Shown here piece after piece: positions 6,350 through 33,536 of a stretch of DNA of 33,823 nt. Source of the DNA: a virus (Duplodnaviria > Heunggongvirae > Uroviricota > Caudoviricetes). Each line of letters begins with the position of its first letter. Positions within the stretch are counted from its first letter, which is position 1. The notes beneath the pieces were generated by a model. It did not search any database. It was not told the DNA's origin and saw only the letters and a list, made by a program, of their open reading frames with translations. The position numbers and the translations under genes were made by a program. The DNA lies in the IMG/VR virus record IMGVR_UViG_2877251553_000003; one strand, written 5' to 3'.

Positions 6350-6750
6350 GTGGGAACCAAAGTGTCAGATATGCAGAAAAATGTGAATCCCGGCAGGCGA
6401 AAAGGCTGCCCTAATTATCCTCCCGAATTTAAACAGCAGCTCGTTGCTGCCTCCTGTGAACCCGGGATATCCATCTCAAAACTTGCTCTTGAAAATGGCA
6501 TTAACGCCAATCTGTTGTTCAAATGGCGACAACAATGGCGCGAGGGAAAGCTGCTATTACCTTCTTCAGAGAGCCCCAGCTACTTCCTGTGACTCTCGAT
6601 GCAGCTGCCGAACAGCCAGAATCGCTCGCAGAGGATCCGGAAACCCTCAGTATCAGCTGTGAGGTAACGTTCCGGCACGGGACGCTCCGCTTCAATGGCA
6701 ATGTCAGCGAAAAGCTCCTGACTCTGCTGATACAGGAACTGAAGCGATGA
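6350..6750 (+). CDS. tnpA: IS66-family TnpA (orf1); frame break in a C-run near 6574-6577
   Basis: Two overlapping track ORFs (6350-6592, 6523-6750) read as one protein if one C is added; start uncertain (GTG 6350 or ATG 6371). Confidence 0.7.
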
Positions 6751-7094
6751 TCCCGTTACCTTCCGGGACCAAAATTTGGCTGGTTGCCGGTATCACCGAT
6801 ATGAGAAATGGCTTCAACGGCCTGGCGGCAAAGGTGCAGACGACGCTGAAAGACGCTCCGATGTCAGGTCACGTTTTTATCTTCCGTGGGCGTAATGGCA
6901 GTCAGGTAAAGCTCCTCTGGTCTACCGGCGATGGACTGTGTCTGCTGACCAAACGGCTGGAGCGCGGCCGCTTCGCCTGGCCGTCAGCCCGGGATGGCAA
7001 AGTGTTCCTCACACCGGCACAGCTGGCGATGCTCCTTGAAGGTATCGACTGGCGGCAGCCTAAAAGACTGCTTACGTCCCTGACTATGTTGTAA
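6747..7094 (+). CDS. tnpB: IS66-family TnpB (orf2)
   Basis: 115-aa ORF MIPLPSGTKIWLVAGITDMRNGFNGLA... overlapping the tnpA stop (ATGA). Confidence 0.8.
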   Translation: MIPLPSGTKIWLVAGITDMRNGFNGLAAKVQTTLKDAPMSGHVFIFRGRNGSQVKLLWSTGDGLCLLTKRLERGRFAWPSARDGKVFLTPAQLAMLLEGIDWRQPKRLLTSLTML

Positions 7095-7142
7095 GCCTCT
7101 TTATCCTGGTCGACGCTGAATGAGCCTGGTAATATACCCGGT

Positions 7143-8680
7143 ATGAGCAGCTCACTTCCTGACGATATCAATGCACTGAAACGTCTCCTTGCCGAACAGG
7201 AGGCGCTGAACCGTGCCCTGCTGGAAAAGCTGAACGAGCGTGAACGCGAAATAGACCATCTGCAGGCACAGCTGGATAAGCTGCGCCGGATGAACTTCGG
7301 CAGCCGCTCCGAAAAAGTCTCCCGTCGTATCGCACAGATGGAAGCTGACCTGAAGGCACTTCAGAAAGAAAGTGATACCCTTACCGGTCGGGTTGACGAC
7401 CCGGCCGTGCAGCGCCCGCTGCGTCAAACCCGCACCCGCAAACCGTTCCCCGAATCACTCCCCCGCGATGAAAAACGGCTGCTGCCGGCAGCGTCATGCT
7501 GCCCGGAATGTGGAGGCTCACTGAGCTATCCGGGTGAGGATGCCGCCGAACAGCTGGAGTTGATGCGCAGCGTCTTCCGGGTTATCCGGACTGTACGTGA
7601 AAAGCATGCCTGTACTCAGTGCGATGCCATCGTGCAGGCCCCGCGCCTTCACGGCCCATCGAGCGGGGTATCGCAGGACCGGGGCTGCTGGCCCGCGTGC
7701 TGATCTCAAAGTATGCAGAGCACACCCCGCTGTACCGCCAGTCTGAAATGTACGGCCGCCAGGGCGTGGAGCTGAGTCGTTCACTGCTGTCGGGCTGGGT
7801 GGATGCATGCTGCCGGCTACTGTCACCGCTGGAAGAAGCGCTTCAGGACTATGTGCTGACTGACGGTAAGCTCCATGCTGATGACACGCCTGTCCCGGTG
7901 CTGTTGCCAGGCAATAAGAAAACGAAGACCGGGCGGTTATGGACCTACGTTCGTGACGACCGTAACGCCGGGTCAACGCTGGCGCCGGCGGTGTGGTTCG
8001 CTTACAGCCCGGACAGAAAAGGCATCCATCCGCAGACCCATCTTGCGGGGTTCAGTGGTGTACTGCAGGCGGATGCATACGCCGGGTTCAACGAGCTGTA
8101 CCGGGATGGCCGGATAACGGAAGCCGCCTGTTGGGCTCACGCCCGCCGTAAAATCCACGATGTGCACGTTCGCACCCCGTCAGCCCTGACGGAGGAAGCG
8201 CTGAAACGGATCGGCGAACTGTACGCCATCGAGGCAGAGATAAGGGGAATGACGGCGGAGCAGCGCCTTGCCGAACGTCAGTTGAAAACGAAACCGCTGC
8301 TGAAATCCCTGGAAAGCTGGCTGCGTGAAAAGATGAAAACCCTGTCGCGACACTCAGAACTGGCGAAAGCGTTCGCATACGCCCTGAACCAGTGGCCGGC
8401 GCTGACGTACTATGCAGATGATGGCTGGGCTGAGGCGGACAATAATATCGCTGAAAATGCGTTGCGGATGGTCAGTCTGGGCCGCAAAAACTACCTGTTC
8501 TTCGGTTCGGATCATGGAGGAGAGCGGGGAGCGCTGCTGTACAGCCTGATCGGGACGTGCAAACTGAACGGAGTGGAGCCAGAAAGCTACCTCCGCTATG
8601 TACTTGACGTCATAGCCGACTGGCCGATAAACCGGGTCGGCGAACTGCTCCCCTGGCGCGTAGCACTGCCGACTGAATAA
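7143..8680 (+). CDS. tnpC: IS66-family transposase TnpC (orf3); frame break near 7638-7647
   Basis: Track ORFs 7143-7703 and 7619-8680 join into one ~510-aa protein (leucine-zipper N-terminus, CxxC...CxxC, DDE region) with a single-base correction. Confidence 0.75.
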
Positions 8681-8725
8681 CACATCCCCGTCAATACGGT
8701 TCTTGCTGCACGCTTACCATTGACG

Positions 8726-9957: not shown

Positions 9958-9967
9958 GGTGACTTTT

Positions 9968-10493: not shown

Positions 10494-12142
10494 ATGTTAG
10501 TCAAGAAAAATAAAAATTATAGTTTATATTTTTTAATTACAAATAATCAACAGATATCTGATTCTGGTAATTATATAAAAATAGTCCCATCAAGAAGCGA
10601 TTGGAATGATTTTGGATATTTGAGTAGAGTCGAAATATCTATTTTTAATAAAAAAGAGTGTAAGGATATAATTTCACTGAATGGTTATATTGGTTTTTTG
10701 AATTCAGAGGAGGAACGAAATGGAAAAGCAGAACTGATAAGGCGAGTGAAAAAAAAGGAAGAATCTAATTTAAAGGATGAGGGGTTTAATGATTATTTTG
10801 TCATGCTTCAGGATATGAATAATTATCGAAGACTAGTAAGATTTTTTGGGGTGAATGAATCCAAATATATATTAAATTTCATTAATGATGTTGTTTCTAA
10901 GAAAAGTGACGCTAGTGCAGAGAATTTGAGGAAAAAAGCAATCTCTTCTGATATCTTTAATAAATCTTTCATTAGAGAGTCTGAGTCGTATTTTACTTTC
11001 AAAAATGCAGGAACAGTTCTTTCCGGTATTCAATATGAGGAGTTGGGTAATTTATCACAGCACATCAAGATTAGCTATTCGAATAAAGTTAATGAAGAAG
11101 ATGTATCTTATGTTTTTAATTTTGATCACGAGCATGATTTACCAAAAAGAATTTCCATAATTATAGGCGAGAATGGTGTAGGAAAAAGCCAAACGCTTAG
11201 AGAAATCGCATTGGCTGCGATTAAAGGAAAGGATAATTTGGTGGCTGTAGTTGATTCTAACGGTGTGAGCATTGAAGAACGAATTCAAATTAGTAGGCTC
11301 ATTGCTTTTTCTCCAACAAATGAAAGTAAGTGTTCATTTCCAACCGATAAAAGAATAAAATCATTGATATGGTACAAAAGATTGACTTTAAATCGTGAAT
11401 CAAAATCCAAATTAAACTTGAATGATTTAATAGTGCAACTAGCGAGGAGTAACGACGCTATCGGCTATAATCAAAGGTGGAATATATTTGTTGATGCACT
11501 GAGTGTTCTAAATAGTAACAACGATTTAGTAATCAAATGTGGCGGTGAAAATTCACCATTTGTTAAATTAAATGAGCTTAATTCTCGAGGCGAAGAATCT
11601 AGACTATCATTATATTCTGAAATTATTCTCTCTGGCGAGCCTTTGAGGCTTATTGAAAATAAATGTTACCCTTTGAGTAGTGGGAAATATCGTTTATTAA
11701 GTTTTGTGTACAAGTTTGTTTGTATATTGAGAATGGGACTCTTCTATTAATAGATGAGCCAGAAACACATCTCCATCCTTCATTTATTAATAAATTTATG
11801 GCATTGCTTGATAATTTATTAGAAAAGACAGGCTCTTCAGCTATCATAGCAACGCATTCGGTTTATCTTGTTCGGGAGGTTTTTAAGGAGCAAGTGACAA
11901 TACTCAGAAGACGAGATGATGGGGTAATTGTTAGCGAAAAACCGAGATTGAGTACTTTTGGGGCGAATATAGGAAATATCTCATATTTTGTTTTCGGTGA
12001 GAGTGAACCAACTCAAATTTTAAATAAAGTAAAAAACAATATAATTGCAAAGAATATGTCTTGGGATGATGTTGAATCTAAATATAGCGAGGACTTATCA
12101 CTTAATGTATTAACTGCGTTGAGAAATGAAATGGGCAATTGA
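10494..12142 (+). CDS. ABC-type (AAA_15/AAA_21-like) ATPase of a candidate defence module, with a ~200-aa N-terminal extension; one frame break near 11715-11722
   Basis: Walker A IIGENGVGKSQ (about aa 213), LSSG signature, Walker B LLLIDEPE, H-loop ATHS; track ORFs 10494-11750 and 11720-12142 join if one T is restored in gtttgtttg; strong RBS GAGAGGG; very AT-rich. Confidence 0.8.
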
Positions 12143-12143
12143 A

Positions 12144-13007
12144 ATGAATAAATTAAAAAGACCTGTTTTTAAAGATTATTCTGCATTTAAAAAACTATCT
12201 GCAAATAAGAGATTAAAACATCATTCTGTTCTGAATGGACAGGATACATTTATACTTAATGCATATAGATCGTACATAAAGAATAAAGGGTATCTTAATG
12301 TCAATTCTTGTGGCGTATTGAGTAACAATATTGCTGAAGCTTTGAGATATTATTATAACAATCCCGCAAAGTGTTTATCTATAATTGATGATATAAGAGC
12401 AGCTAATTCTAACTCTCTATGTCCAATGTGTGGTTCAATGCATAGCGGGACTTTGGATCATGTTTTACCCAAGGAAAACTATCCAGAATTTTCTTTATTC
12501 ACTAAGAATTTGGTTCCTGCTTGCAAATGTAATACTTTCAAAAGTACTACTATAGCTAATTCTGCAGGCCATCGGATGCTGCATCCATATTTTGATAATA
12601 TATTAAAACAAAGATTAATATGTGCTAATTTTTCTAAATTAGGGCGAACACCTACAATTGATGTAAAAATCATAATTGACCCAATGTCACCAGAATATAA
12701 CAATGTTAAGTATCATCTTGATAATGTTGTTATCAAGAATAATATTAAGGGGTATTTGTCTGAACAATGGGAGTCGTTTTACTTATATCCTGAGCTTGTT
12801 ATTAGAGGACTGAATAAGAGTCTTTCTACTTATAGCGATGTATATGAGTTGTTGACTCGCGAGTTGTTGCTGTTGGATGAAAAACATAAAGGTAAAAATA
12901 ATTGGAATTCGGTTTTTGTAGCTGGGTTAATTCGACCTGATGTGATTAGGTGGATACTCTGTGAATTACATTTAGGTAACAGAAGTCCAGACGGTCGTCT
13001 CATATGA
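12144..13007 (+). CDS. HNH-family endonuclease, partner of the upstream ATPase
   Basis: CPMCGS...LDHVLPKENYP...NLVPACKCN fits the HNH pattern (CxxC, DH, N, CxC); starts right after the ATPase stop (alternative overlapping ATG at 12126). Confidence 0.75.
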   Translation: MNKLKRPVFKDYSAFKKLSANKRLKHHSVLNGQDTFILNAYRSYIKNKGYLNVNSCGVLSNNIAEALRYYYNNPAKCLSIIDDIRAANSNSLCPMCGSMHSGTLDHVLPKENYPEFSLFTKNLVPACKCNTFKSTTIANSAGHRMLHPYFDNILKQRLICANFSKLGRTPTIDVKIIIDPMSPEYNNVKYHLDNVVIKNNIKGYLSEQWESFYLYPELVIRGLNKSLSTYSDVYELLTRELLLLDEKHKGKNNWNSVFVAGLIRPDVIRWILCELHLGNRSPDGRLI

Positions 13008-13114: not shown

Positions 13115-14148
13115 TTAAGTAGCTAGTTTATAACTATCAAATTTAACAATGTTCTCACTTACCAATTTATTTATTTCCATCATTCTTTTTTGTAACGGTA
13201 TTAACTCGTTACGTACAAACACCAGGCTCGCCTTCTCCACATCCCCAAACCCCCGACATTATTAGGCATAATCCCCATCATTTGCGGTGGCACACGATGC
13301 GCCGCCATCATGTCATCCCGGCTCACGTTCTTGATGTTCAGAAACTCATCCTTCGCCGCGACTTCTGACAACGGGATGATCTGAAGCCCGTCCTTTTTGC
13401 CGTTAGGCGAGTACATAAACAGATTGCGGAAGTTACCTGGTCCTTTGGCGCTTTTCATCGCATTGCGGAGGTTGTTCACATCCTCCTGGTTTTGCGCGGC
13501 ATCGGTCATGTACATGATGAAGCCTGCATGACTGCCGTTAATGTAATACTATCGGCGGAACAGCGTGGCGGACTCGTTGAGCAGGGCTGACGGAATGGCA
13601 GAAAGGTAACCTGGCAGGCCGTAGATCTCTTGGTTGATGTCCGGTTCCATCAGATGAAAGATGCTTCCTTTCGTGAACTGATACGGCTGCGTGGTCATGC
13701 CGTATTGCACAAACCAGTAGGTATCCAGGTCTAATCCGCGTCGGGTGTATTTTGCCAGAGCAGGCTCAAGAGCGATGACCTATCCGAACCGGTTTGTGCG
13801 TTTCTCCAGGTAAGCGTTACCAAATACCAGATAATCCTGCACAAAACGTGAAAAAGCCTGCTGGCTGAGCAGCGGGTGAGGGATGTAGGTACTGATCAGA
13901 ATGTTGCATTTCACCGCAATTGGTGAACTGTGATGCACGGCGGCGCGGAAGGTGCGCGCCAGTCCGTCAAAACTCACTGGCGGCTCATACCAGCGATCTG
14001 TCTGTACGCATTCCACATAGTCCAGTAGTTCACGGCGGTCCAGAACCGGAACGGGATCGCCGAAGCTGAATGCTTCGGCTGAAGTCTGGTTTTTATGCTG
14101 GGTCTGTTTCGTCGCCGCAGCGCGGTTCTTCTTACTCTTTCCCATCAA
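13115..14148 (-). pseudogene. Q: P2 gpQ-type portal protein with two in-frame TAG codons and one C-terminal frame break
   Basis: MMGKSKKNRAAATKQ... N-terminus; TAG at 13780-13782 and 13549-13551 (as the reverse complement of cta) in the same frame as the flanking segments; a frame change near 13251-13260 extends the ORF to about 13115. Confidence 0.8.
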
Positions 14149-15910
14149 AAAATCTCCACAATATTGCTGGTATTGGCGGACTCGCCCTGCAGCGGTTCGT
14201 TAAACAGTGCGTGCATTGTTGCCCAGGCCAGATCGGCATGGCTGGCTTCTTCGCTGCGGCTGGCTTCATAGGTCGGGCGGTTGCCGCTGGCGGTGGTGGC
14301 GCGACGGATTGCCATGAATGACTGCGCAATGTCGGTGTGCCCGGCGTCAAACTCAAGACGGCGGTGGCTGATAATGTCGTAGGCCTTGAGTACCAGGGCG
14401 TTTTTAACGTTGGGGTTGTAGACAAACTCCCGGACGGCAGGAAAAAACGCTTTCACGTTCTCGTAAACCCGTGACCAACGCCGGTTGAGTCGATGCCGAT
14501 ATAGGTCACGTTGTACTGTTCAGTCAGTTTTTTGATGGCGTAAGCCTGGGCGCGAAAGTCCATTCCGCGCCACTGGTGACGCTCAAGAATGCGGAACTTA
14601 CCGCCTGGCACGGCTGGCGGTGCCACCACCACGCATCCGGCGCTGTCGCCGTTCTGCGTACCTTTTGCCGGGTCATAACCGATCCACACTTCGCGCCAGC
14701 CAAACGGGCGCAGGGCCAGTGCATGAAAGTCGGTCCAGACTTCCCAGCTGTCCACCATGCACGCCTGCAATTCGCTGAGCGGGAACACGGACGCGAGATC
14801 GTCCACGAACTCGCACATCAGCAGGTTCTGGTATTCGTCAGGGCTGTACTCCATGCGCAACTGGTCAAGGTCGAACAGGTTACAGGCGCCGCGCACCGCA
14901 TCTTCCACGGTGACTATCTGGCGGTATTGCCCGTCTGCGCACAGCAGGCCGGGGGCCAGATTGCTGTGGGACAGGTCGATGTCCACCTTGTCAGCTTTGT
15001 TGCGCCCACGGTTGAACAGCGCACCGGACCAGAACGGATAAGCACTGTGGGTCAGACTGGATGGTGTGGAAAAATAGGTCTGCCGCCATTTCTTGTGAAT
15101 AGCCATACCAGAAGCCACTTTGCGTAGCTCCTGAAATTTCGGTATCCAGAAATATTCATCCAGATACAGGTTACCGTGATAACTCTGGGCAGTGCGGGCA
15201 TTGGTGCCGAGGAAATACAGTGTGGCCCCGTTGGGAAGCACCATCGGATCGCCTTTCAGCTCCACCTCCACTTCTTTGGCAAAGTCGATGATGTACTGTT
15301 TGAAGACGTGGGCCTGTGCCTTACTGGCAGAAAGGAAAATCTGGTTACGTCCGGTAAGCAGGGCGTCAATCAGGGCTTCACGGGCAAAATAGAAGGTCGC
15401 GCCGATCTGGCGTGACTTCAGCAGGTTGCGGATGCGGTTGGTTTTTCCGGCTTCCCACCAGTGGCGCTGGTAGTTGAACATGGAGGAATGGAAATTTTTT
15501 TCCAGCTTCTCAATCTGGTCATCGGTGAAAACATTCTTTTCAGGCTGACGGCGTGGGCCTTTGTTGCGGTTGGCGACGTTAGGGTTTAAGTCGGCTTCGT
15601 TGCCGCCATTGTTAAACTTGCCGATCCGCGCGTGGCGCTCAGACTGGCGCGCCAGCAGGTCAATATCTTTGAAATCTTTCCCTTCTTTGTGCTCCTTCAT
15701 GATGAGCTGGCAGTAGCGTGCGGCGGTGGTGAGCTGCATCTGATCCAGAGGCCCATAGTCACCCCACTTGTCGCGTTTTTTCCAGCTGTAAACGGTTGCA
15801 ACTTTCTCGCCCAGCATTTCAGCAATGCGGGCTACGCGGTATCCCTGAAAGTACAGCAGCATGGCCTGCCGACGGGGATCGAGATCTGCGGGTGTCAGTG
15901 TGGTGTTCAT
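14145..15910 (-). CDS. P: P2 gpP-type terminase large subunit; single frame break near 14468-14470
   Basis: Track ORFs 14453-15910 and 14145-14456 join as ...IGIDSTGVGHG|VYENVKAFFPAVREF... if one G is restored. Confidence 0.85.
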
Positions 15911-18710: not shown

Positions 18711-19157
18711 ATGAAGTTTGTTGCGCCAGAACAGGCACCGGAACAGGCGGAAATCATTAGAAATACGCCGTTCTGGCCTGATGTGGACCTGTCGGAGTTT
18801 CGCAGTGTCATGCGCACTGACGGCACGGTGACGCAGCCGCGTTTAAAGTAGGTTGCACTGTCGGCAATTTCGGAGGTTAACGCAGAGCTGTATGAATTTC
18901 GCAGACGCCAGCAGATGCTGGGGTATGCGTCGGAACAGCTGGACGGGAAAAGTGAGCGCATTCAGCACTATTTCAACGCGGTTTACTGCTGGGCTCGCGC
19001 CATGCTCAACGAACGTTTCCAGGACTATGACGCCACGGCATCCGGTGCGAAGCGGGGCGAAGAACTGGCGGAAGCAAGCGGTGATTTGTGGCGTGACGCC
19101 CGCTGGGCCATCAGCCGGGTGCAGGACGCGCCGCACTGCACAGTGGAGCTTATCTGA
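18711..19157 (+). pseudogene. L: gpL head completion protein with an in-frame TAG at 18849-18851
   Basis: MKFVAPEQ... and ...NAELYEFRRRQ...CTVELI lie in the same frame either side of the TAG; RBS GGAGAAAG before the ATG. Confidence 0.75.
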
Positions 19158-22123: not shown

Positions 22124-22167
22124 CCTCGCGCATACAACCGGGCAGTGATGTGATTGTCTGCGCTGAA

Positions 22168-22545
22168 ATGGACGAACAGTGGGGCTACGTCGGTGCTAAA
22201 TCACGTCAGCGCTGGCTGTTTTACGCGTATGACAGGATACGGAGGACGGTTGTGGCGCACGTCTTCGGTGAACGCACTCTGGCCACACTGGAGCGTCTTC
22301 TGAGCCTGCTGTCGGCCTTTGAGGTCGTGGTATGGATGACGGATGGCTGGCCGCTGTATGAATCACGCCTGAAGGGAAAGCTGCACGTTATCAGCAAGCG
22401 TTACACTCAGCGCATTGAGCGACATAATCTGAATCTGAGACAACATCTGGCAAGGCTGGGACGGAAGTCACTGTCGTTCTCAAAATCGGTGGAGCTGCAT
22501 GACAAGGTCATCGGGCATTATCTGAACATAAAACACTATCAGTAA
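22168..22545 (+). CDS. insB: IS1 InsB
   Basis: [16 protein letters not shown]... in the same position within the element as in copy 1. Confidence 0.85.
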
Positions 22546-22560
22546 GTTGGCAGCATTACC

Positions 22561-23038
22561 ATGCAGCCCTCACAATATAGTTAAAAGCGACATTTCGTGG
22601 GCGTGTTTCATTCGCACCTGCAGGTTTAGTCGTTGCCGCAACAACACCACCCTCTGTAATAGCCGGGTTGGGAATTGGGTAATTATCGAAGTCAATGGCC
22701 GGAGACAGGGGCGTGATTTGTTTTAAAATCGTGGTGCCTGTAAAACTTTCCAGAGTCTGGTCGTTAGTTCGTGAAGTCCAGATTCCCCAATAGTGGTTAT
22801 GACTGACAATCGCACCGTCCTGAAGCGTTAATAATCCCCTTCCGTTATCCACTCCACGTCCGTCATCCCAGCCACGAATAAACTCACCGCGTAAATCAGG
22901 CAATTTATTTGTCGGGTAAGCCTTTGCCAGTTCCGGGTATTCTTCAGCAGAAAAAGCCGCACCATTGCATTTCAGCCAGCCTGTCGGCGGAGTGGCTGAA
23001 GGCCACGGAACAGGCACACCAACAGGTAATGCAGAGCC
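22561..23038 (-). pseudogene. Tail-fibre C-terminal variable domain (alternative, inverted copy) with no attached constant region
   Basis: PWPSATPPTGWLKCNGAAFSAEEYPELAKAYP...ETRPRNVAFNYIVRAA is the conserved tail-fibre C-terminal pattern (P2 H / Mu S type); begins at the crossover site and abuts IS1. Confidence 0.65.
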
Positions 23039-23064
23039 TTCTCCCAAACCAACGTTTAAGAAAA
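23039..23064. other. Gin/Hin/Cin/Pin-type 26-bp recombination crossover site
   Basis: TTCTCCCAAACC-AA-CGTTTAAGAAAA fits the half-site pattern (TTnTCnnAAACC / GGTTTnnGAnAA) next to the invertase gene. Confidence 0.5.
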
Positions 23065-23119: not shown

Positions 23120-23685
23120 ATGCTTATTGGCTATGTACGCGTGTCAACAAATGACCAGAACACCGATTTGCAACGTAATGCACTGAACTGCGCGGGATGT
23201 GAGCGGATTTTTGAGGATAAAATCAGTGGCACTAAGCCCGACAGACCGGGGCTTAAAAAACTGCTCAGGACACTATCGGCAGGAGACACGCTGGTTGTCT
23301 GGAAGCTGGACAGACTGGGACGCAGTATGCGGCATCTTGTTACGCTGATAGAAGAGTTGCGCCAGCGTGGTGTGAATTTCCGAAGCCTGACTGACAGTAT
23401 TGATACCAGTACCCCAATGGGCCGTTTCTTTTTTCACGTCATGGGGCTCTGGCTGAAATGGAACGTGAACTGATAGTTGAACGTACCAGAGCAGGGCTGG
23501 CTGCAGCTCGTGCCAAAGGCAGAGTAGGTGGACTCCGTCCTAAGTTGACCACCGAACAGTGGGCACAGATTGGACGTTTACTCGAGGCCGGAGAATCAAG
23601 ACAGCGTATTGCACTGATTTTTGATGTGGGCGTTTCTACCATTTATAGAAAATTTCCGGCGAATGAGAGCAATGAATCGCCCTGA
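23120..23685 (+). CDS. pin: Pin/Gin/Hin-family serine DNA invertase; frame break in a G-run near 23444-23447
   Basis: MLIGYVRVSTNDQNTDLQRNAL...VVWKLDRLGRS...FFFHVMG|ALAEMERELIVERT... nearly identical in pattern to E. coli Pin as recalled. Confidence 0.85.
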
Positions 23686-23733
23686 GTCAGTATTATTTTG
23701 ATTTTTCCTGTAAGCGGACAAATACCGTCATTT

Positions 23734-23751
23734 TGTGTGAATAACGACACA
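23734..23751. promoter_or_regulatory. TGT-N12-ACA late promoter box upstream of FI
   Basis: TGTgtgaataacgacACA about 80 bp upstream of the FI ATG. Confidence 0.5.
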
Positions 23752-23827
23752 ACTGCGCTTAGCTGTTTGTCAGGCACAATCACTTCAACATAGGGCGAAG
23801 CCTAATCCAATCAGGAGGTTCGCCACT

Positions 23828-25000
23828 ATGGCTCAGGATTACCACCACGGGGTGCGCGTTGTTGAAGTCAACGAAGGCACCCGATCCATTACCACGGTGA
23901 GCACCGCCATCGTGGGTATGGTCTGCACGGGCGATGATGCCGATGCAAAAATGTTTCCTCTTAATAAACCTGTGCTGATCACTGATGTGCTGACCGCCAG
24001 CGGTAAAGCGGGTGAGTCTGGCACGCTGGCCCGTTCGCTGGATGCCATCGCTGACCAGGCAAAACCCGTGACCGTTGTTGTGCGTGTGCCGCAGGGTGAA
24101 ACGGAAGAAGAAACCACAACCAATATCATTGGCGCAGTGACCGCCGAGGGTAAAAAAACAGGTATGAAAGCCCTGTTATCTGCCCAGTCACAGCTCGGCG
24201 TTAAACCGCGCATTCTCGGCGTGCCAGGTCACGACACGAAGGCGGTAGCTACTGAGTTGCTGAGCGTGGCGCAAAGCCTGCGTGGATTTGCTTACCTGTC
24301 AGCGTATGGTTGCAAGACGGTGCAGGAAGCAATCACTTACCGTGAAAACTTCAGTCAGCGTGAAGGAATGCTGATCTGGCCCGACTTTACTGGCTGGGAC
24401 ACGGTGCTGAATGCCGAAGCAACGGCTTATGCCACCGCCCGTGCGCTCGGTCTGCGCGCTAAAATTGATGAGCAGACCGGATGGCACAAAAGCCTGTCCA
24501 ACGTGGGCGTGAACGGTGTCACCGGAATTTCTGCTGATGTGTTCTGGGATCTGCAGAACCCGGCAACCGATGCAGGTCTGCTTAACCAGAACGATATCAC
24601 CACGCTTATCCGCAAAGACGGTTTCCGCTTCTGGGGTTCCCGCTGTCTGAGCGATGATCCGCTCTTTGCCTTCGAAAACTACACCCGCACGGCGCAGGTG
24701 CTGATGGACACGATGGCAGAAGCGCACATGTGGGCGGTGGACAAACCGCTGAACCCGTCGCTGGCCCGCGACATTATCGAAGGTATCCGCGCCAAAATGC
24801 GTAGCCTGGTCAGTCAGGGCTATCTCATTGGTGGTGATTGCTGGCTGGACGAGTCGGTGAACGATAAAGACACGCTGAAAGCCGGGAAACTCACCATCGA
24901 TTACGACTACACGCCAGTGCCGCCACTTGAAAACCTGATGCTGCGTCAGCGCATCACCGATCAGTACCTGGTGAATTTCTCCAGCCAGGTCAGCGCGTAA
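23828..25000 (+). CDS. FI: gpFI tail sheath protein
   Basis: 390-aa ORF, P2 FI-like; RBS AGGAGG. Confidence 0.9.
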
Positions 25001-25009
25001 GGGGACAAC

Positions 25010-25524
25010 ATGGCTTTACCACGCAAATTAAAACACCTGAACCTGTTTAACGACGGGAACAACTGGCAGGGGATCGTTGAGTCGCTGACGCTGCCGAAAT
25101 TCACCCGCAAATATGAGAAGTATCGCGGCGGCGGTATGCCCGGAGCGGTGGATGTGGATCTGGGACTGGATGACAGTGCACTGGATACAGAATTTTCCAT
25201 TGGTGGTACTGAACTGCTGCTGTTTAAGCAGATGGGCAAAGCCACGGTGGATGGCATCCAGCTGCGCTTTACCGGCTCTATTCAGCGTGATGATACCGGG
25301 AAGTGCAGGCCGTGGAGCTTGTGGTGCGTGGACGTCACAAAGAAGTAGATTCCGGCGAGTGGAAGACGGGCGAAAGCAACACTACCAAAGTGACCAGTAC
25401 CAACAGCTACGCGAAGCTGACCATCAATGGTGAGGTGCTCTATGAAGTGGACCTGATCAACATGGTGGAAATTGTGGACGGTGTGGACCTGATGGAAGCG
25501 CACCGCAACGCCCTCGGCCTCTGA
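25010..25524 (+). CDS. FII: gpFII tail tube protein; frame break near 25298-25300
   Basis: Track ORFs 25010-25348 and 25303-25524 join as ...QRDDTGEVQAVELVVRGRHKEV... with one added G. Confidence 0.85.
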
Positions 25525-25578
25525 TGTATCTGAACGGCGCGGAATGCCGCGCCAGAACCTAATTTACAGGACAACAAA

Positions 25579-25880
25579 ATGAGCGATAAGCAGACTGAAA
25601 AGACCATTCAACTGGATACTCCCATCATGCGCGGTAAAACAGAAATTACCGAAATTGTGTTGCGTAAACCGCAGTCCGGTGCGCTGCGCGGCACACGCCT
25701 GCAGGCCATTATGGATATGGATGTGAACGCGATGATGACCGTGATCCCCGCATCTCCAGTCCGGCACTGACTGCACAGGAAATTGCAGAGATGGACCCGG
25801 CAGATCTCACTGCCATGTCGGTTGAGGTTGTCACTTTTTTGTTGAAGAAGTCGGTGCTTGCCGGTTTACCGACAGCCTGA
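25579..25880 (+). CDS. E: gpE tail assembly chaperone; frame break in a C-run near 25746-25749
   Basis: MSDKQTEKTIQLDTPIMRGK...; with one added C the ORF continues to the TGA at 25878-25880. Confidence 0.7.
25845..25851 (+). other. TTTTTTG slippery heptamer for the programmed -1 frameshift producing E+E' (E' would end at 26014)
   Basis: T6G near the 3' end of E; the -1 frame is open to the TGA at 26012-26014, overlapping the start of T, as described for P2 E/E'. Confidence 0.5.
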
Positions 25881-26006
25881 CGGTTGACGATCTGGTGGCT
25901 GATATCGCCACCATCTTTCACTGGCCGCCATCCGTTACTGACGTTATGCCGCTGACCGAAGTGCTGGAATGGCGGGATAAAGCGATTCAGAGAAGCGGGG
26001 CCAGCC

Positions 26007-29000
26007 ATGAGTGACAATAACCTGCGTCTGCAGGTGATTCTTAATGCGGTTGACAAACTCACCCGCCCATTTCGATCCGCGCAGGCCAGTTCAAGAGAAC
26101 TGGCTGCTGCTGTCAAAAAATCCCGCGATGCAATAAAGCAGCTTGATCAGGCCGGGAGCAGTCTGGACAGCTTCCGAAAGCTGCAGGCAGAAAATCAGAA
26201 ATTAGGCGACAGGCTGAACTATGCCCGCCAGCGTGCAAATTTGCTCAGTCAGGAACTGGGAGCGATGGGGCCGCCTTCGCAACGTCAGGTTGTTGCTCTG
26301 GGCCGTCAACGGCTGGCTGTTCAGCGCCTGGAAGAACGCCAGAAAAAGCTGCAGCAGCAGACGGCGCTTGTGCGTGCAGAACTTTATCGTGCTGGTATTT
26401 CAGCTAATGATGGCGCCAGTGCGACGGCCCGCATTACCCGTGAAACGATGCGTTATAACAGGCAGCTTTCTGAGCAGGAAGCGAGGTTACGACGTGTCGG
26501 GGAGCAACAGCGAAAAATGCACGCCGCCCGGGGGCTTACGCCAGGCGTCTTGAGGTAAGGGATCGTATTGCAGGTGCCGGAGCCACCACCACGGCTGCAG
26601 GGCTGGCAATGGGCGCACCAGTGATGGCGGCAGTAAAAAGCTATACCAGCATGGAAGATGCCATGAAAGGTGTGGCAAAGCAGGTCAATGGTCTGCGTGA
26701 CGATAATGGCAACCGCACTGCGCGTTTTTACGAAATGCAGGGTGCCATCAAGGCTGCCAGCGAACAGTTGCCGATGGAAAACGGTGCTGTGGACTTCGCC
26801 GCACTGGTTGAAGGTGGTGCGCGCATGAACGTCGCAAACCCTGACGACAGCTGGGAAGACCAGAAACGTGACCTGCTGGCCTTCGCCAGCACGGCGGCAA
26901 AGGCGGCAACAGCCTTTGAACTGCCAGCGGATGAACTGTCAGAAAGTCTGGGGAAAATCGCCCAGCTCTACAAAATCCCTACCCGCAATATTGAGCAGCT
27001 CGGTGATGCGCTGAACTATCTGGATGATAACGCCATGTCGAAAGGGGCGGACATCATTGATGTCATGCAACGCCTGGGCGGTGTGGCTGACCGTCTGGAT
27101 TATCGTAAAGCGGCGGCGCTGGGTTCCACCTTCCTGACACTCGGCGCTGCGCCTGAGGTTGCAGCCAGTGCAGCAAACGCGATGGTGCGTGAATTGTCCA
27201 TTGCCACCATGCAAAGCAAGAGTTTCTTTGAAGGGATGAATCTGCTGAAACTCAATCCAGAAGTGATTGAAAAGCAGATGACGAAGGATGCGATGGGAAC
27301 TATCCAGCGGGTGCTGGAGAAGGTGAATGCGCTGCCACAGGATAAGCGCCTGTCTGCCATGACCATGTTGTTTGGTAAAGAGTTTGGCGATGACGCAGCG
27401 AAACTGGCAAACAACCTGCCGGAACTTCAGCGCCAGTTAAAACTGACTGCGGGCAATGATGCGCTCGGTTCCATGCAGAAAGAATCCGACATCAACAAGG
27501 ATTCACTTTCTGCTCAGTGGTTGCTGGTCAAAACCGGAGCACAGAACACCTTCAGCAGCCTGGGGGAAACGCTGCGCCAGCCGCTGATGGATATTCTGTA
27601 CACGGTGAAAAGCGTCACGGGGGCGTTGCGTCGCTGGGTGGAAGCTAACCCGGAACTGACGGGCACTCTGATGAAAGTAGCCGCTGTGGTAGCTGCCGTT
27701 ACCGTGGGCCTCGGCACCTTAGAGGTGGCGCTGGCTGCAGTGCTGGGGCCGCTGGCAGTCATCCGTCTGGGATTCTCTGTGCTGGGTATCAAAACGTTAC
27801 CTTCCGTTACGGCAGCAGTAACCCGAACCAGCAACGCGTTGTCCTGGCTGGCTGGCGCACCACTGGCACTGCTGCGACGCGGGCTTGCTTCATCGGGCAA
27901 CGCTGCAGGTTTACTTACTGCGCCGTTGTCGTCTTTGCGCCGCACGGCATCACTGACGGGAAATGTCCTGAAAACTGTAGCAGGTGCGCCGGTTGCACTT
28001 TTGCGGGTCTGGATTATCCGGTTTACGTGCGGTTGCTGTGATGTTTATGAATCCACTGGCGGTACTACGCGGCGGACTGGCTGCCACAGGCACGGTGCTG
28101 CGTATGCTCGCATCCGGTCCACTGGCGATGCTGCGCGTTGCCCTGTATGCCGTCTCTGGTCTGTTAGGTGCTCTGCTCAGTCTGATAGGTCTTGTGGTTA
28201 CTGCACTGGCGGGTGTGGCGCTGGTTGTCTGGAAATACTGGCAGCCCATCACCACATTTCTCGGTGGCGTGGTGGAAGGATTCAAAGCGGCGGCAGGTCC
28301 TGTCAGTGCCGCGTTCGAACCGCTTAAGCCTGTGTTCCAGTGGATTGGCGACAAAGTACAGGCGCTGTGGGGCTGGTTTACTGATCTGCTGACGCCCGTT
28401 AAGTCGACCTCTGCCGAACTGCAGAGTGCAGCGGCAATGGGGCGACGATTCGGGAGGCTCTGGCGGAAGGGCTGAATATGGTCATGCATCCGCTGGACTC
28501 CCTGAAATCCGGCGTTTCCTGGTTGCTGGAGAAACTTGGCATTGTCAGTAAAGAGGCCGCAAAGGCGAAACTGCCGGAAAGCGTGACGCGTCAGCAACCT
28601 GCGACGGTGAATGCAGACGGTAAAGTGATGATGCCATCGGGTGGTTTTCCGTCATGGGGATATGGCTTTGCGGGGATGTATGACAGCGGCGGGTATATCC
28701 CGCGCGGGCAGTTTGGCATCGTCGGTGAAAACGGGCCGGAAATTGTTAACGGCCCGGCAAATGTGACCAGCCGGAGAAATACAGCTGCACTGGCTGCCGT
28801 TGTTGCCGGAATGATGGGTGTTGCTGCTACGCCAGCAGAGCTTCCACCGTTGCACCCTTTGGCACTTCCCGCGAAAGGCGGTGAAGCGATGGTGAGTCGT
28901 GCAGCCACTGTGCCGCCCGTTCAACGGATTGAGGCACCGATGCAGATCATCATTCAAACGCAGCCAGGACAAAGTGCGCAGGATATTGCGCGGGAGGTGG

Positions 29001-29082
29001 CCCGCCAGCTTGATGAACGTGAACGCAGGCTGAAGGCAAAAGCCAGGAGTAACTACAGCGATCAGGGGGATACGACGCATGA
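26007..29082 (+). CDS. T: gpT tail tape measure protein; at least four frame breaks
   Basis: Four consecutive track ORFs (26007-26558, 26609-28327, 27984-28475, 28478-29329) carry one continuous Ala/Gly/Leu-rich tape-measure sequence; breaks at G-runs near 26530, 28439 and 29065 and one unlocated break between 27984 and 28327. Confidence 0.8.
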
Positions 29083-29564
29083 TGATGGTGCTGGGATTGT
29101 ACGTGTTTATGCTGCGCACCGTGCCGTATCAGGAGCTGCAGTATCAACGCAGCTGGCGACATGCGGCAAACAGCCGGGTAAACCGACGCCCGTCAACGCA
29201 GTTTCTGGGACCGGACAACGACATGCTGACGCTTTCTGGTGTTCTTATGCCGGAGGTAACGGGCGGCAGGCTGTCGTTGCTGGCTCTGGAGCAGATGGCA
29301 GAACAGGGAAAAGCATGGCCCCTGATTGAAGGCAGCGGCACGATTTACGGCATGTATGTGATTGAGGGACTGAATCAGACTAAAACGGAGTTTTTCCGCG
29401 ACGGTATGCCGCGCCGGATTGAGTTCACCCTGTCGCTAAAACGCGTGGATGAATCCCTGTCCGATATGTTCGGTGATCTCAGTGCGCAACTGAATAATCT
29501 GCAGGGAACGGCAACATCTGCCTTAAGCGATATCAGTAAAACGGTGGGAGGGCTGCTGTCGTGA
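29079..29564 (+). CDS. U: gpU tail protein
   Basis: 161-aa ORF similar to P2 gpU (WPLIEGSGTIYGMYVI, FTLSLKRVDESL). Confidence 0.85.
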   Translation: MMMVLGLYVFMLRTVPYQELQYQRSWRHAANSRVNRRPSTQFLGPDNDMLTLSGVLMPEVTGGRLSLLALEQMAEQGKAWPLIEGSGTIYGMYVIEGLNQTKTEFFRDGMPRRIEFTLSLKRVDESLSDMFGDLSAQLNNLQGTATSALSDISKTVGGLLS

Positions 29565-30660
29565 ATTTCAGCTCTGAACTGCTTAACAAAGGCAACAAAA
29601 CTCCGGCATTCAGCATCAGTATTGAAGGCAGGGATATCACCACTGTGCTGGACAACCGCCTGATGGGGCTGACGCTGACGGATAACCGGGGCTTTGAGGC
29701 GGACCAGCTTGATCTGGAGCTGGACGACGCCGATGGAAAAATCGTGCTGCCGCGCCGTGGGGCTGTCATTACGCTGGCGCTGGGCTGGAAGGGACAGCCG
29801 CTTTTCCCGAAAGGGGCATTCACGGTGGACGAGATTGAACACACTGGCGCACCGGATCGCCTGACTATCCGGGCGCGAAGTGCTGATTTTCGTGAAACGC
29901 TGAATACCCGCCGTGAAAAGTCGTGGCACAAGACCACCGTTGGGGAAGTGGTGAAGGAAATAGCTGCGCGGCACAAACTGAAGATGGCATTGGGTGAAGA
30001 CTTGTCGGATAAACTCGTGGAGCATATAGACCAGACTAATGAGAGTGACGGCAGTTTTTTGATGCGGCTGGCGCGCCAGTACGGTGCTATTGCGTCGGTG
30101 AAAAATGGCAATCTGTTATTCATCCGGCAGGGCAGGGTAAAAGCGCCAGCGGTAAACCACTACCGGTGATCACTATCACACGCAAGGACGGCGACAGTCA
30201 CCGCTTTACCCTGGCAGATCGCGGAGCTTACACGGGCGTCATTGCCAGCTGGTTGCATACCCGCGAACCCGCGAAGAAAGAAAGCACCACTGTGAAGCGT
30301 AAGCGCAGGACTAAGAAGCAGAAGAAAGAGCCGGAAGCGAAGCAGGGCGATTACCTGGTGGGTACGGATGAAAACGTGCTGGTACTTAATCGCACTTATG
30401 CCAACCGGAGCAACGCCGAACGGGCAGCGAAAATGCAGTGGGAACGCCTGCAACGCGGCGTTGCATCATTCTCGCTACAACTGGCGGAAGGGCGGGCAGA
30501 TCTCTACACAGAAATGCCTGTGAAGGTCAGTGGCTTTAAACAGCCGATAGATGATGCGGAATGGACCATTACGACTCTGACGCATACTGTCAGCCCGGAT
30601 AACGGTTTTACGACCAGTCTGGAGCTTGAAGTGAGGATTGATGATTTCGAAATGGAATGA
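29561..30660 (+). CDS. D: gpD tail protein; frame break near 30130
   Basis: Track ORFs 29561-30169 and 30166-30660 join with one added base in cagggcagggt. Confidence 0.85.
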
Positions 30661-30750
30661 TTCTTCGCAATGGAGAACTTTTAAGTTTGCAAAATGGAAT
30701 AATGCGGTATCATTATTGTGAATTTAGCAAAAATGGGGAGAACTCGAAAA

Positions 30751-30969
30751 ATGATGATTTGCCCACTGTGTGGAAGTGCCGCCCATACTCGCAGCAGTTT
30801 TCAGGTATCTTCATTGACCAAAGAGCGTTACAACCAGTGCCAGAACATTAACTGCAGCCATACTTTTGTTACCCATGAAACTTTTGTTCGTTCGATTGCA
30901 ACGCCAAAAGAGTCAAATCCGGTTCAGCCGCATCCAATGAAATCAGGACAGGTGGCGCTCTCTCTTTGA
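30751..30969 (+). CDS. ogr: Ogr zinc-finger late-gene transcription activator
   Basis: MMICPLCGSAAHTRSS...KERYNQCQNINCSHTF...RPHP matches the P2 Ogr Cys pattern; RBS GGGGAG. Confidence 0.85.
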   Translation: MMICPLCGSAAHTRSSFQVSSLTKERYNQCQNINCSHTFVTHETFVRSIATPKESNPVQPHPMKSGQVALSL

Positions 30970-31048
30970 CGCTGCCGCCATTTTGTCGCCATCGTTAAAA
31001 AACAGTGCTTCTAACATCATGATTTTAAAAGGCATAAATTTCAGACAA

Positions 31049-31092
31049 CAAAAAACCCATCAACCTTGAACCGAAATGGCGGGGTTGATGGG
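31049..31092 (-). terminator. Rho-independent terminator on the minus strand downstream of ybjL
   Basis: Minus-strand stem CCCATCAACC...GGTTGATGGG followed by TTTTTTGTTG. Confidence 0.5.
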
Positions 31093-31204
31093 CTCCACAA
31101 AATGGGGACATCAAAGAAAAGCAGTGGCACTAATTAAGACTGATGCCCTGCGGAAAAGTTCTGCGGTTGTGCAAAAAAATTTCATTTTCAGGGCAACTTC
31201 AGTT

Positions 31205-32890
31205 TTATCCTAATCCTGGCCATACCATGACGATGATTGTCCCTGCCAGCGTCAGCAGGACGTTGGCGATTGCGTAGGTGCCCGCATAGCCCAGCGCAGG
31301 GATGTTACTGCGAGCTGTATCACTGATGATCTCCATTGCCGGCGCGCAGGTGCGTGCGCCCATCATTGCGCCGAACAACAGTGCGCGGTTCATTCGCAAT
31401 ACATAAGCACCGAACAAGAAACAGATAACCACGGGCACAAGACTGACAATTAATCCGGCAATCAACATCTGACCGCCAATCGCGGCCAGGCCGTTATTAA
31501 TACCGCTACCGGCGCTCAGACCAACGCCTGCCATAAACACCATCAAGCCGAACTCTTTCACCATGCTTAATGCACCTTGCGGAATGTAACCGAAGGTCGG
31601 GTGGTTAGCACGCATAAAGCCCAGCATAATTCCGGCGAATAACAACCCGGCAGCGTTCCCCATGCCGAAACTGAATGTGCTGAACTGGAAGGTGATCATC
31701 CCGATCATCAGCCCAATAACAAAGAAGGCGCAAAATGCCAGCAGGTCAGTGACCTGGCTGTGAATCGAGATAAAGCCGATGCGATCGGCAATGGTTTTTA
31801 CGCGACGGGCATCACCGCTGACTTGTAAAACGTCACCTTTGTTAAGCACGACGTTGTCATCTATCGGCATCTCAATCTGGCTACGAATGACGCGGTTAAG
31901 GAAGCAACCGTGATCGGTCAACTTCAGTTGTGCGAGACGTTTACCTACAGCGTTATGGTTTTTAACGACCACTTCTTCAGTGACGATACGCATGTCGAGA
32001 AGGTCACGATCGAAAACTTCTTTACCGTTACGGAAGCTGGGATCGAGTCGGGCATGGGCGTCGGGATAGCCTACCAACGCTATTTCATCGCCCATTTGTA
32101 GCACGGCATCACCGTCTGGATTTGCCAGAATCCCGTTACGTCGAATACGTTCAATGTAGCAGCCGGTTTGTCGATAAATACCCAGTTCACGCAGATTTTT
32201 GCCGTCGGTCCAGGCCACCAGCTCCGGGCCGACGCGATAGGCGCGGATCACCGGTAAATAAACCTTACGGTTGGCATCAGTGTCCAGGCCACGTTCGCGG
32301 GCGATTTGCTGGGCGCTGGTCTGTAAGTCCTGATGCTGCAATTTCGGCAAGTAACGCGCACCAACAATCAAACTCACCAGACCGATTAAATAGGTTAAGG
32401 CATACCCGAGGCTCAGATTATCCAGTGCCAGTGAGAGCTGCCTGCTTTCCATGCCGGAATGACGCAGTGTATCGCCAGCACCGACCAGAACCGGTGTCGA
32501 CGTCATAGAGCCTGCTAACATACCGGCCGTCAGGCCAATATCCCAGCCAAACAGCTTACCTAACCCTAAGGCGATCACCAGCGCACTGCCAACCATCACC
32601 AGTGCTAACATTAGGTAATTTTTCCCATCGCGAAAAAAAATGGAAAAAAAGTTCGGTCCGGCTTCGACCCCGACGCAGAAAATAAACAGCATAAAGCCAA
32701 GATTAAGCGCATCGGTGTTAATGCTGAAATGTTGTTGGCCTAATAACAGCGATACGACTAAAACGCCAATGGAATTACCCAGTTGGATCGAACCAAGTCG
32801 TAACTTTCCGAGACATAGCCCAAGCGCGAGGACCACAAATAATAACAGAATGTAATTCCCATTTAACAATTCGGCGACGTTTATATTCAC
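31205..32890 (-). CDS. ybjL: YbjL putative transporter (AAE family)
   Basis: 561-aa ORF recognised as E. coli YbjL; multi-TM halves around a central soluble region. Confidence 0.9.
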
Positions 32891-33159
32891 GGAGGCTAAC
32901 TTCTTGTTTACTAGTAAGCTGTTGAAAGAAATGGTAATTTACGATAATGTTTTTTACCAGAATTCAGGGCGCAGATTCATTCAGCGCACCTAAACGATAG
33001 TAAAGTAACAATGTATTTTACTAGTGTAATCACATTAGGTATCAACGGCTATATGAATTGCGTTGGCCTATATTAGCATGGAATGCGAAGCGGCTTTATC
33101 TTACTGAACGCCACACTGGCGAAAAATGTGTTCGATAGACGCAGTGTCAGGAGGAACGA

Positions 33160-33536
33160 GTGAAACATAAACAACGTTGGGCAGGGGCAATCTGCTGTTT
33201 TGTCCTCTTCATTGTGGTGTGCCTTTTTCTGGCGACGTACATGAAAGGCGCTTTTCGGGCTGCCGGGCATCCTGAAATCGGCTTGCTGTTTTTCATTCTT
33301 CCTGGAGCAGTTGCCAGTTTCTTTTCACAGCGTAGAGAAGTCCTGAAACCTCTATTTGGCGCAATGCTGGCGGCACCCTGTTCAATGCTCATTATGCGGC
33401 TGTTTTTTTCACCGACGCGCTCATTCTGGCAAGAGCTGGCATGGTTACTAAGCGCGGTGTTCTGGTGTGCGCTGGGGCACTGTGTTTCTTATTTATCAGT
33501 AGTTTGTTTAAACCACAGCACAGAAAAAATCAGTAA
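33160..33536 (+). CDS. ybjM: YbjM inner membrane protein (the ORF in this assembly runs on to 33693 because of an A6 run at 33524-33529)
   Basis: MKHKQRWAGAICCFVLFIVV...; with A7 instead of A6 the protein ends ...TEKNQ at about 125 aa just before the hairpin; the uncorrected ORF overlaps grxA. Confidence 0.7.

Follow-up and report, generated by a model that had tools for sequence, protein, structure and literature searches.

The window analyzed here, a stretch of 33,823 nt, carries a prophage together with flanking host DNA that includes ybjM. Head-completion (L), portal (Q) and terminase (P) genes, tail genes FII (tail tube), E (tail chaperone) and T (tape measure), and the late control gene D are accompanied by a pin invertase gene, a PDC-M01A/PtuA-like AAA ATPase gene, and insertion sequences. 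Positions 23160 to 33823 are 100% identical to GenBank CP026825.1, and this Shigella chromosome (probably S. dysenteriae) is the source of the window. Judging from its accession range and from the literature on neighboring records, CP026825.1 would have been assembled from PacBio long reads only, with no short-read polishing: one paper describes CP026832 as sequenced with PacBio and credits it to Kim et al. 2018 (PMC10132075), and another assigns CP026774-CP026878, the range into which CP026825 falls, to the same study (PMC7819885). The strain of CP026832 is ATCC 49346.

To compare run lengths, we called one-base events against a UPEC reference, using the ISEc22 copy of locus L003 for the ISEc22 part, and traced the distribution of each event over ~40 related loci. 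Comparators from outside the sequencing project included ABCGBH01, AKNG01, and UYIT01, which belong to the same subclade as the source, and CP045784 (L012), which carries the same ISEc22 insertion. Comparator drafts were taken to be short-read assemblies on the basis of contig sizes and accession styles. The one-base events and the other lesions of the prophage are listed in Table 1.

Table 1. One-base length differences and other lesions in the window, with the status that appears most probable for each. Run lengths are given as reference→window.
Position	Strand	Feature	Change	Most probable status	Distribution and remarks
1025..1026		Intergenic, ydcA-like ORF / cI	C3→C2	Artefact, no frame break	C3 in 5/5 other copies covering the site
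2157..4179	+	IS911 in place of early prophage genes	Interrupted by IS1	Genuine decay	
6280..8717	+	Replication gene A	Split by ISEc22 insertion	Genuine inactivation	Also in non-project L012 (CP045784), L013
6574..6577	+	ISEc22 (IS66 family) tnpA	C5→C4	Artefact	C5 in 5/5 same-insertion copies (L009, L012, L013, L014, L016)
7639..7642	+	ISEc22 transposase tnpC	C5→C4	Artefact	Window-private
11682..11684	+	AAA ATPase (PDC-M01A/PtuA-like)	G4→G3	Artefact	G4 in 11/11 other copies; 549 aa in sister assemblies
13250..13254	-	Portal gene Q	C6→C5 (+ strand)	Artefact	Also in two other project assemblies
13551..13782	-	Portal gene Q	Nonsense: K199* (13551), E122* (13782)		K199* common to sisters; E122* a private substitution
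14468..14470	-	Terminase gene P	C4→C3	Artefact	Window-private; 588 aa in every sister vs 485 aa in window
18849..18930	+	Head-completion gene L	Q47* (18849); 18-bp in-frame deletion after 18930	Genuine decay	
23443..23446	+	pin invertase	G5→G4	Artefact	Window-private; pin117 fragment on 1 contig among 15 billion proteins
25298..25300	+	Tail tube gene FII	G4→G3	Artefact	Private to CP026825.1
25746..25749	+	Tail chaperone gene E, body	C5→C4	Artefact	Window-private
26530..26534	+	Tape-measure gene T	G6→G5	Systematic artefact	Throughout sequencing project
28005..28007	+	T	G2→G3 (insertion)	Real inherited frameshift	
28452..28454	+	T	G4→G3	Artefact	Window-private
29065..29069	+	Close to T 3′ end	G6→G5	Artefact	Also in one other project assembly
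30130..30132	+	Late control gene D	G4→G3	Artefact	Private among fetched loci; D202 fragment in only 2 NCBI chromosomes
33474..33477	+	Host gene ybjM	G5→G4	Artefact	Common to five project assemblies

The prophage itself is truly defective: it carries IS insertions, Q and L are interrupted by nonsense codons, and T has a real +1 frameshift. Lesions of all these kinds recur in independent assemblies. The portal protein is split into 198 and 133 aa in many assemblies, and L into 46 and 80 aa in sisters, project and non-project alike. Every member of the subclade has the 28005 insertion in T, the non-project ABCGBH01, AKNG01, and UYIT01 among them, and in the latter T is called as 773 + 250/270 aa. 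Outgroups have G2 at this position and lack the insertion, a pattern that matches the substitution tree. The insertion appears to be the only real one among the 15 one-base events. The original prediction, made from the letters of the window, had suspected an extra base in T between 27984 and 28327, and this is where the insertion was found.

Compared to close relatives, the window shows 15 one-base length differences, 14 deletions and 1 insertion, and the affected run consists of G or C in all 15 events and of A or T in none. The probability of an event increases with the length of the G/C run: by reference length, 3/3 runs of six, 5/13 runs of five, 5/80 runs of four, and 1/467 runs of three were altered. 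Thirteen of the 15 events fall inside G/C runs of at least four, which constitute 1.3% of aligned bases (binomial P ~4e-23). Among runs of at least four, 13/96 G/C runs carry an event versus 0/317 A/T runs (Fisher P = 3e-9). The window contains 52 A/T runs of 6 to 8 and no G/C run of six or more. All but one of the 14 deletions break genes, namely, ISEc22 tnpA, tnpC, ATPase, Q, P, pin, FII, E, T (three times), D, and ybjM; the remaining one is intergenic, and so both coding and noncoding DNA is affected. Event rates in host and prophage DNA are equal (0.31 and 0.42 per kb, P = 0.79), and private deletions continue just beyond the window, in host rlmC and artJ. The overall density, ~1 per 2.6 kb, extrapolates to roughly 1,800 events per genome (4.7 Mb).

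Alignment to close homologues with a count of indels at runs, the check proposed with the original prediction, is what yielded the 15 events in G/C runs. Most of the predicted frame breaks at short runs were borne out, with tnpA, tnpC, Q, P, pin, FII, E, T (26530 and 29065), and D at the sites claimed. A further break in T, expected at ~28440, exists but lies at 28452-28454. The ATPase and ybjM breaks had been misplaced: the first was assigned to a T-run at ~11718 instead of the G-run at 11682-11684, and the second to an A-run (33524-33529) that is identical to the reference, while the lost base belongs to the G-run at 33474-33477. The list missed the fifteenth event, the intergenic one at 1025-1026, as well as the exclusive involvement of G/C runs.

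The distribution of the events separates the insertion from the deletions. Fourteen of the 15 events, the one in ybjM included, occur in no assembly other than those of a single sequencing project, as anticipated by the proposal of homopolymer sequencing error; this absence holds even at substitution distances of 0 to 2 per 10 to 17 kb. Eleven deletions are private to the CP026825.1 assembly, with sister assemblies only 0 to 2 substitutions per 10 kb away. In a 20.5-kb four-way sister alignment, the source has 9 private G/C-run one-base deletions and 0 private substitutions, and sister CP026805 has no private one-base deletion. The early 16.7 kb contains one deletion common to L016 and one private substitution in addition to 4 private deletions. 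ABCGBH01, AKNG01, and UYIT01 are 0 to 2 substitutions away from project assemblies, and their runs are full-length except for the 28005 insertion; all early runs are full-length in CP045784. Wherever these four assemblies cover the 14 runs, all 14 are full-length.

The deletions that recur do so within the project. At T 26530, G5 is found in 10/11 project assemblies from at least three sublineages versus 0/11 others, all of which have G6 (Fisher P = 3e-5); the project assembly L032 is 1 to 3 substitutions from the non-project loci L025, L026, and L029, which have G6. The 13250 and 29065 deletions are homoplastic inside the project. At 13250, C5 is shared by the window, L011 (CP026731), and L016 (CP026823), while the same-lineage L009 and L012 to L014 have C6, a distribution at odds with the phylogeny; at 29065, only the window and L031 (CP026866), which belongs to a different sublineage, have G5, and all other copies compared have G6. 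ABCGBH01 and CP026823 show 0 substitutions over 16.7 kb, yet two G-runs differ between them. Overall, the distribution of the 14 deletions is not congruent with the substitution phylogeny and is not seen across independent projects.

If all frame breaks were genuine, a dead prophage and dispensable host genes would be undergoing pseudogenization in a Shigella lineage known for genome decay. The prophage is indeed broken by ISEc22 in A, by the IS911::IS1 arrangement, by the Q and L nonsense codons, and by the real T frameshift, and some breaks are common to several sister chromosomes. However, shared breaks track the sequencing project rather than the tree, 11 breaks occur in a single assembly despite its very close sisters, and the events are restricted to G/C runs, with every six-base run altered and A/T runs spared. 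Shigella pseudogenes number up to a few hundred; given the equal host rate, ~1,800 frameshifts per genome would be expected, which we deem incompatible with a viable cell. Genuine decay at all 15 sites is therefore very unlikely. A mutator source strain, mismatch repair–deficient or with a slippage-prone polymerase, would accumulate real G/C-run deletions, and both the increase of slippage with run length and the confinement of most events to one assembly agree with it. Mismatch repair–deficient E. coli show mostly transitions, and A/T runs are affected too; in contrast, the window's 11 private deletions stand beside a lone private substitution (a C>A transversion), and its A/T runs of at least four are untouched. 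One strain's phenotype also leaves unexplained why unrelated project assemblies show identical deletions and why ABCGBH01 and CP026823 differ at G-runs, so we regard this account as highly improbable. Least credible of all, with hardly any probability, are phase variation and programmed or read-through frameshift sites. The changes do sit at homopolymers, and P2-type E/E′ genes use a natural frameshift, but the runs are just 3 to 6 bases long and are scattered over phage structural genes, an IS element, an intergenic spacer, and ybjM, with events skewed 14:1 to deletion. No enrichment of events at gene 5′ ends was observed. Phase-variable contingency loci carry a long run (usually at least seven), placed in the promoter or the 5′ end of a gene for a surface or restriction function, and no affected run fits this description. 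A programmed E/E′ frameshift was rejected since the deletion lies in the body of E rather than in the natural overlap and no other copy has it. Sisters keep a normal 100-aa E and a 39-aa GpE ORF.

The ybjM deletion requires separate consideration. G4 is found in CP026805, CP026823, CP026825, CP026832, and CP026842, whereas ABCGBH01, AKNG01, and UYIT01, non-project members of the same subclade, have G5. Within the project, the change is thus clade-linked (5/5 subclade assemblies versus 0/7 others, P = 0.0013), which purely random errors do not predict; an extra cause is needed, candidates being batch, chemistry, or DNA modification. One possibility is that the 11 private and two patchy deletions are errors while the ybjM deletion was inherited and then reverted in the ABCGBH01, AKNG01, and UYIT01 lineages. 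Perfect clade linkage inside the project, co-occurrence with the real 28005 insertion, and the presence of the same LGHC junction in other backgrounds of public data speak for this scenario. It nevertheless calls for two or more precise +1 reversions, one of which would fall on a branch without a single substitution over 16.7 kb. ABCGBH01 and CP026823, the pair that defines this branch, also differ at T 26530, the direction of the change being the same, and T is dead and hence free of selection. In addition, the Y27 allele of YbjM is intact on 317 contigs and frameshifted on the 5 project chromosomes only, with no draft contig carrying the frameshift. Inheritance followed by reversion is accordingly quite unlikely. 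In other lineages, the ybjM G-run may undergo genuine mutation as well, since frameshifted 177-aa YbjM variants in the H27 background occur on at least 58 contigs (NCBI, Logan, and ENA). Alternatively, the template itself, through a DNA modification specific to the clade or some other property, could perturb polymerase kinetics at this run and cause a clade-linked miscall, consistent with counts of 5/5 among PacBio assemblies of the subclade, 0/7 in the rest of the project, and 0/3 among independent subclade assemblies. This reading is unlikely too; if true, the "sequencing error" at ybjM would mirror genuine epigenetic biology.

Together, the deletion bias, the dependence on run length, the equal rates in host and prophage, and the intact runs in independent assemblies argue strongly that the 14 deletions are long-read-only consensus errors and that the 28005 insertion alone is real; we hold this to be very probably correct. 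Consensus calling would have lost one base from short G/C runs, more often from longer ones, leaving 14 false deletions in 33.8 kb, 13 of which break genes. Most errors would be private to one low-quality consensus, a few error-prone sites would recur within the project, and all would be superimposed on a genuinely defective prophage. Error "rather than prophage decay," as the original prediction put it, is therefore a false dichotomy, with the first half holding for the 14 deletions and the prophage being truly defective as well. This is a known type of artefact and involves no new biology.

The closed Shigella genome set that includes the source record serves serotype and pseudogene work. 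False frameshifts would contaminate protein databases drawn from the source record, along with the numbers of pseudogenes and the gene losses deduced from it, and broken fragments are already present in public protein collections. Frame breaks shared by related strains had been named as evidence against error. Several breaks are indeed shared, yet solely by sisters from the same project, and because sites recur in 5 to 13 project assemblies, such a check gives false positives unless the comparators come from another project or technology.

Similar artefacts have been documented elsewhere. Unpolished HGAP/Quiver assemblies of the PacBio RS era likewise contain one-base homopolymer deletions, fragmented genes, and inflated pseudogene counts. 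In a PacBio/Quiver genome of ~3.2 Mb, Illumina reads revealed 561 single-base homopolymer deletions (PMC4888979), a density comparable to that extrapolated here, and G homopolymers are reported to be a difficulty for Quiver (PMC4853030). Unlike in the documented PacBio case, errors in the window extend down to runs of 3 to 4 and affect G/C runs exclusively, and recurrent sites, one of them clade-linked, mimic inheritance. Nanopore consensus errors, the target of Homopolish and Kastor, are likewise deletion-biased, homopolymer-linked, gene-fragmenting, nonrandom, and correctable with homologues (PMC12007338; PMC8011154). In one nanopore example, A/T runs were affected at about double the rate of G/C runs (PMC12007338); the pattern in the window is the opposite, and the source project is described, in the literature cited above, as PacBio. 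Genuine Shigella decay, in contrast, consists of mixed kinds of lesions that follow the tree and are independent of the project, whereas all 14 deletions are alike in kind and track a single project.

The window holds a P2-like prophage with an integrase at its left end, late genes, and ogr near 30.7 to 31.0 kb, followed by the host genes ybjL, ybjM, and grxA; in the ORF map, many genes appear as two pieces. NZ_CP049845.1 (99.6% identical), the nearest complete E. coli chromosome, carries every gene intact, and three stretches of the window fail to align with it. Exact matching of the frameshifted 177–amino acid YbjM returned five complete NCBI chromosomes, one of which, CP026825.1, is 100% identical to positions 23160 to 33823. 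The names of the clustered proteins suggest Shigella dysenteriae or S. boydii as the source organism.

Positions of selected one-base events (run length in the reference to run length in the window) and of segments that do not align to NZ_CP049845.1
Feature	Position	Remark
Fifteenth one-base event	1025-1026	intergenic
ATPase break	11682-11684	deletion, G4 to G3
T break predicted at about 28440	28452-28454	
ybjM break	33474-33477	deletion, G5 to G4; translation diverges after ...CALG
IS911 interrupted by IS1	2157-4179	no alignment
ISEc22 (IS66 family) inserted in replication gene A	6280-8717	no alignment
Rearranged tail-fibre/invertible region	21793-23038	no alignment

Next to pin and an IS1 remnant, positions 22561 to 23055 hold the Pin-invertible tail-fibre segment, whose orientation is opposite to that in the UPEC prophage. 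A 12-bp tandem duplication (AAAGAGCATGAT) at 964 to 975 adds four in-frame codons, compared to the UPEC prophage, to a small ydcA-like ORF. At about 4926 to 4935, 55 bp of the reference (5235 to 5289 of related locus L002), located between the dam methylase gene and gene A, are absent from the window, and two alignment blocks overlap there by ~10 bases. GTDB representative genomes, scanned for exact matches to the gene A/ISEc22 junction, gave none.

When the window was aligned to CP049845 and an ISEc22 copy, 15 one-base length differences emerged (14 deletions and 1 insertion), all located in G or C runs. The fraction of G/C runs hit depended on their length in the reference: 3 of 3 runs of six bases, 5 of 13 runs of five, 5 of 80 runs of four, and 1 of 467 runs of three. 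None of the 317 A/T runs of at least four bases was hit (Fisher P = 3e-9 for the G/C versus A/T contrast). The link between events and runs is far beyond chance. The window retains 52 A/T runs of six to eight bases and has no G/C run of six or more. No one-base run differences were found in IS1 and IS911 relative to references 98.7% identical to them, and inspection by eye revealed no methylation-type motif common to the surroundings of the event sites.

The original prediction, which had listed 14 frame breaks at short runs and regarded sequencing error as their likely cause, proved essentially right, and its error interpretation is supported. Eleven of the 14 positions were correct to within a few bases, while the T break noted in the table lay further off and two breaks had been assigned to the wrong run: that of the ATPase to a T run near 11718 and that of ybjM to the A run at 33524 to 33529, which is unchanged, both true sites being G runs. 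All 15 events do fall in runs, but the restriction to G and C and the intergenic event had been missed. The extra base suspected in one T break was confirmed as the sole insertion, at 28005 to 28007.

The source assembly was compared with its sisters in a four-way alignment of 20.5 kb, comprising the late prophage region and, past the window, ~10 kb of host genes. Nine one-base deletions, each in a G/C run and three of them in the host genes rlmC and artJ, are private to it, and it has no private substitutions; its sister CP026805 has no one-base indels and one substitution. Between 6280 and 23007, four private G/C-run deletions, one deletion common to CP026823, and one private substitution were found. 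An indel-to-substitution ratio this high, with a single mutation type, is not what strain divergence looks like.

Three events, at T 26530, T 28005, and ybjM 33474, are common to sister assemblies. Whether related strains share the breaks had been proposed as a check on the error interpretation. An exact look-up of the window’s YbjL, which has the clade-specific residue A469, yielded clade members sequenced in other projects, mostly as contigs of 20 to 200 kb. One of them, ABCGBH01, has no substitutions relative to CP026823 over 16.7 kb and the same 144-bp rimK deletion; nonetheless, its runs are G6 at 26530 and G5 in ybjM. AKNG01 (1 substitution from CP026823) and UYIT01 (2 from the window) are also intact at both sites. 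The T 26530 and ybjM breaks are therefore common to sisters within one project (historical Shigella genomes, accessions about CP026731-CP026866, described as PacBio) and absent from independent assemblies of the same subclade, whose intact runs overturned the view that these two breaks are inherited. At 28005 to 28007, all three independent assemblies have G3.

The 26530 site was shortened in 10 of 11 series assemblies versus 0 of 11 others (P = 3e-5), and in a substitution-only distance matrix, its G5 state tracks the accession series rather than the tree: CP026731, with G5, is 1 to 3 substitutions from three non-series assemblies with G6. The resulting 183–amino acid T fragment occurs on 13 chromosomes; those listed all belong to CP026731-CP026866 and include lineages whose prophages are arranged differently and whose ybjM and remaining T sequence are intact. 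At 13250 and at 29065, the shortened run turns up again in individual series assemblies from other sublineages. The exact repaired T protein of the window’s clade is absent from the protein collection searched, which is consistent with a real 28005 frameshift and uninformative for 26530. G5 at the 26530 site was also seen in an 11-kb Logan contig of a distant lineage (L040, ERR14938997_438). T, ybjL, and ybjM are all split on this contig, and for that reason it probably represents one more noisy long-read data set and not independent support for the break. The 202–amino acid D fragment made by the 30130 deletion occurs on another, 4,711,198-bp NCBI chromosome, whose 97–amino acid T fragment suggests another error-rich record.

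Genuine decay cannot explain deletions that are of one type, confined to G/C runs, and either private to one assembly or tracking one project. From a mutator strain one would expect many substitutions and A/T-run hits as well, and such a strain cannot account for deletions that recur in other assemblies. Runs of three to six bases scattered over unrelated genes are at odds with both phase variation and programmed frameshifting; the E break lies away from the natural E/E' overlap, and the sisters retain that overlap. Among the rivals, only one carries some weight: a real ybjM deletion, the only real one of the 14, that has reverted twice. Within the project, the shortened state is perfectly clade-linked (5 of 5 subclade assemblies versus 0 of 7 others, P = 0.0013), and because of this linkage we leave that rival a slim chance. 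Within the subclade, however, the shortened run is found in 5 of 5 series assemblies versus 0 of 3 others. On the Y27 background of YbjM, the intact allele is present on 317 contigs and the frameshifted allele only on the five series chromosomes; frameshifted H27 YbjM occurs on at least 58 contigs, and this G run may also undergo real mutation in other lineages. Around 33474 to 33477, the related loci compared (L035, L037-L039, and L048) show no sequence difference within 50 nt; the clade linkage may stem from a batch or chemistry that the assemblies have in common, or from a clade-specific DNA modification. Overall, we conclude from these comparisons that the 14 deletions are most probably artefacts and that the insertion at 28005 to 28007 is a real frameshift inherited within the subclade.

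Real decay is present too. ISEc22 in gene A, IS911::IS1 in the early region, the IS1 junction that truncates S, portal K199*, Q47* and an 18-bp in-frame deletion in L, and the T +1 frameshift all occur in independent assemblies as well. The formula originally proposed, “error rather than decay,” is thus better put as “error on top of decay.” Portal E122* is private to the window. It is made by a C>A change (+ strand) at 13782, the sole private substitution that the assembly shows over the roughly 37 kb compared; the site is outside homopolymers, and a real mutation and a rare substitution error are both possible. Downstream of the window, the rimK deletion common to CP026823 and ABCGBH01 is in-frame, and potH is split into 108 and 194 amino acids in CP026823 and AKNG01, coinciding in CP026823 with a private C>A substitution; both changes look like genuine host-gene lesions in the sister strain. 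Beside the portal gene, a low-GC (32 to 38%) pair encoding an AAA ATPase and an HNH endonuclease (10494 to 13007) matches PDC-M01A/B, a candidate defence system of PADLOC (E = 3e-55 and 1e-33), with weaker similarity to PtuA (Septu), and appears to form a defence cassette at the P2 hotspot. Its ATPase seems broken only because of the artefact.

In the window and flank, prophage DNA carries 0.42 deletions per kb and host DNA 0.31 (P = 0.79), a rate that extrapolates to about 1,800 errors in the whole 4.7-Mb chromosome. Because some errors reappear at identical positions in many assemblies of a single project, they can pass for inherited pseudogenes. One paper cites CP026832 as a PacBio sequence of Kim et al. 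2018 (PMC10132075), and accessions CP026774-CP026878 are assigned to Kim et al. 2018 in another (PMC7819885); CP026825 falls inside this range and is therefore a likely project member. Quiver is reported to be weak at G homopolymers (PMC4853030), and Illumina reads exposed 561 single-base homopolymer deletions in another PacBio/Quiver genome (PMC4888979). The feature is a sequencing artefact of low biological interest, and its deletions resemble those of the documented PacBio/Quiver consensus error.
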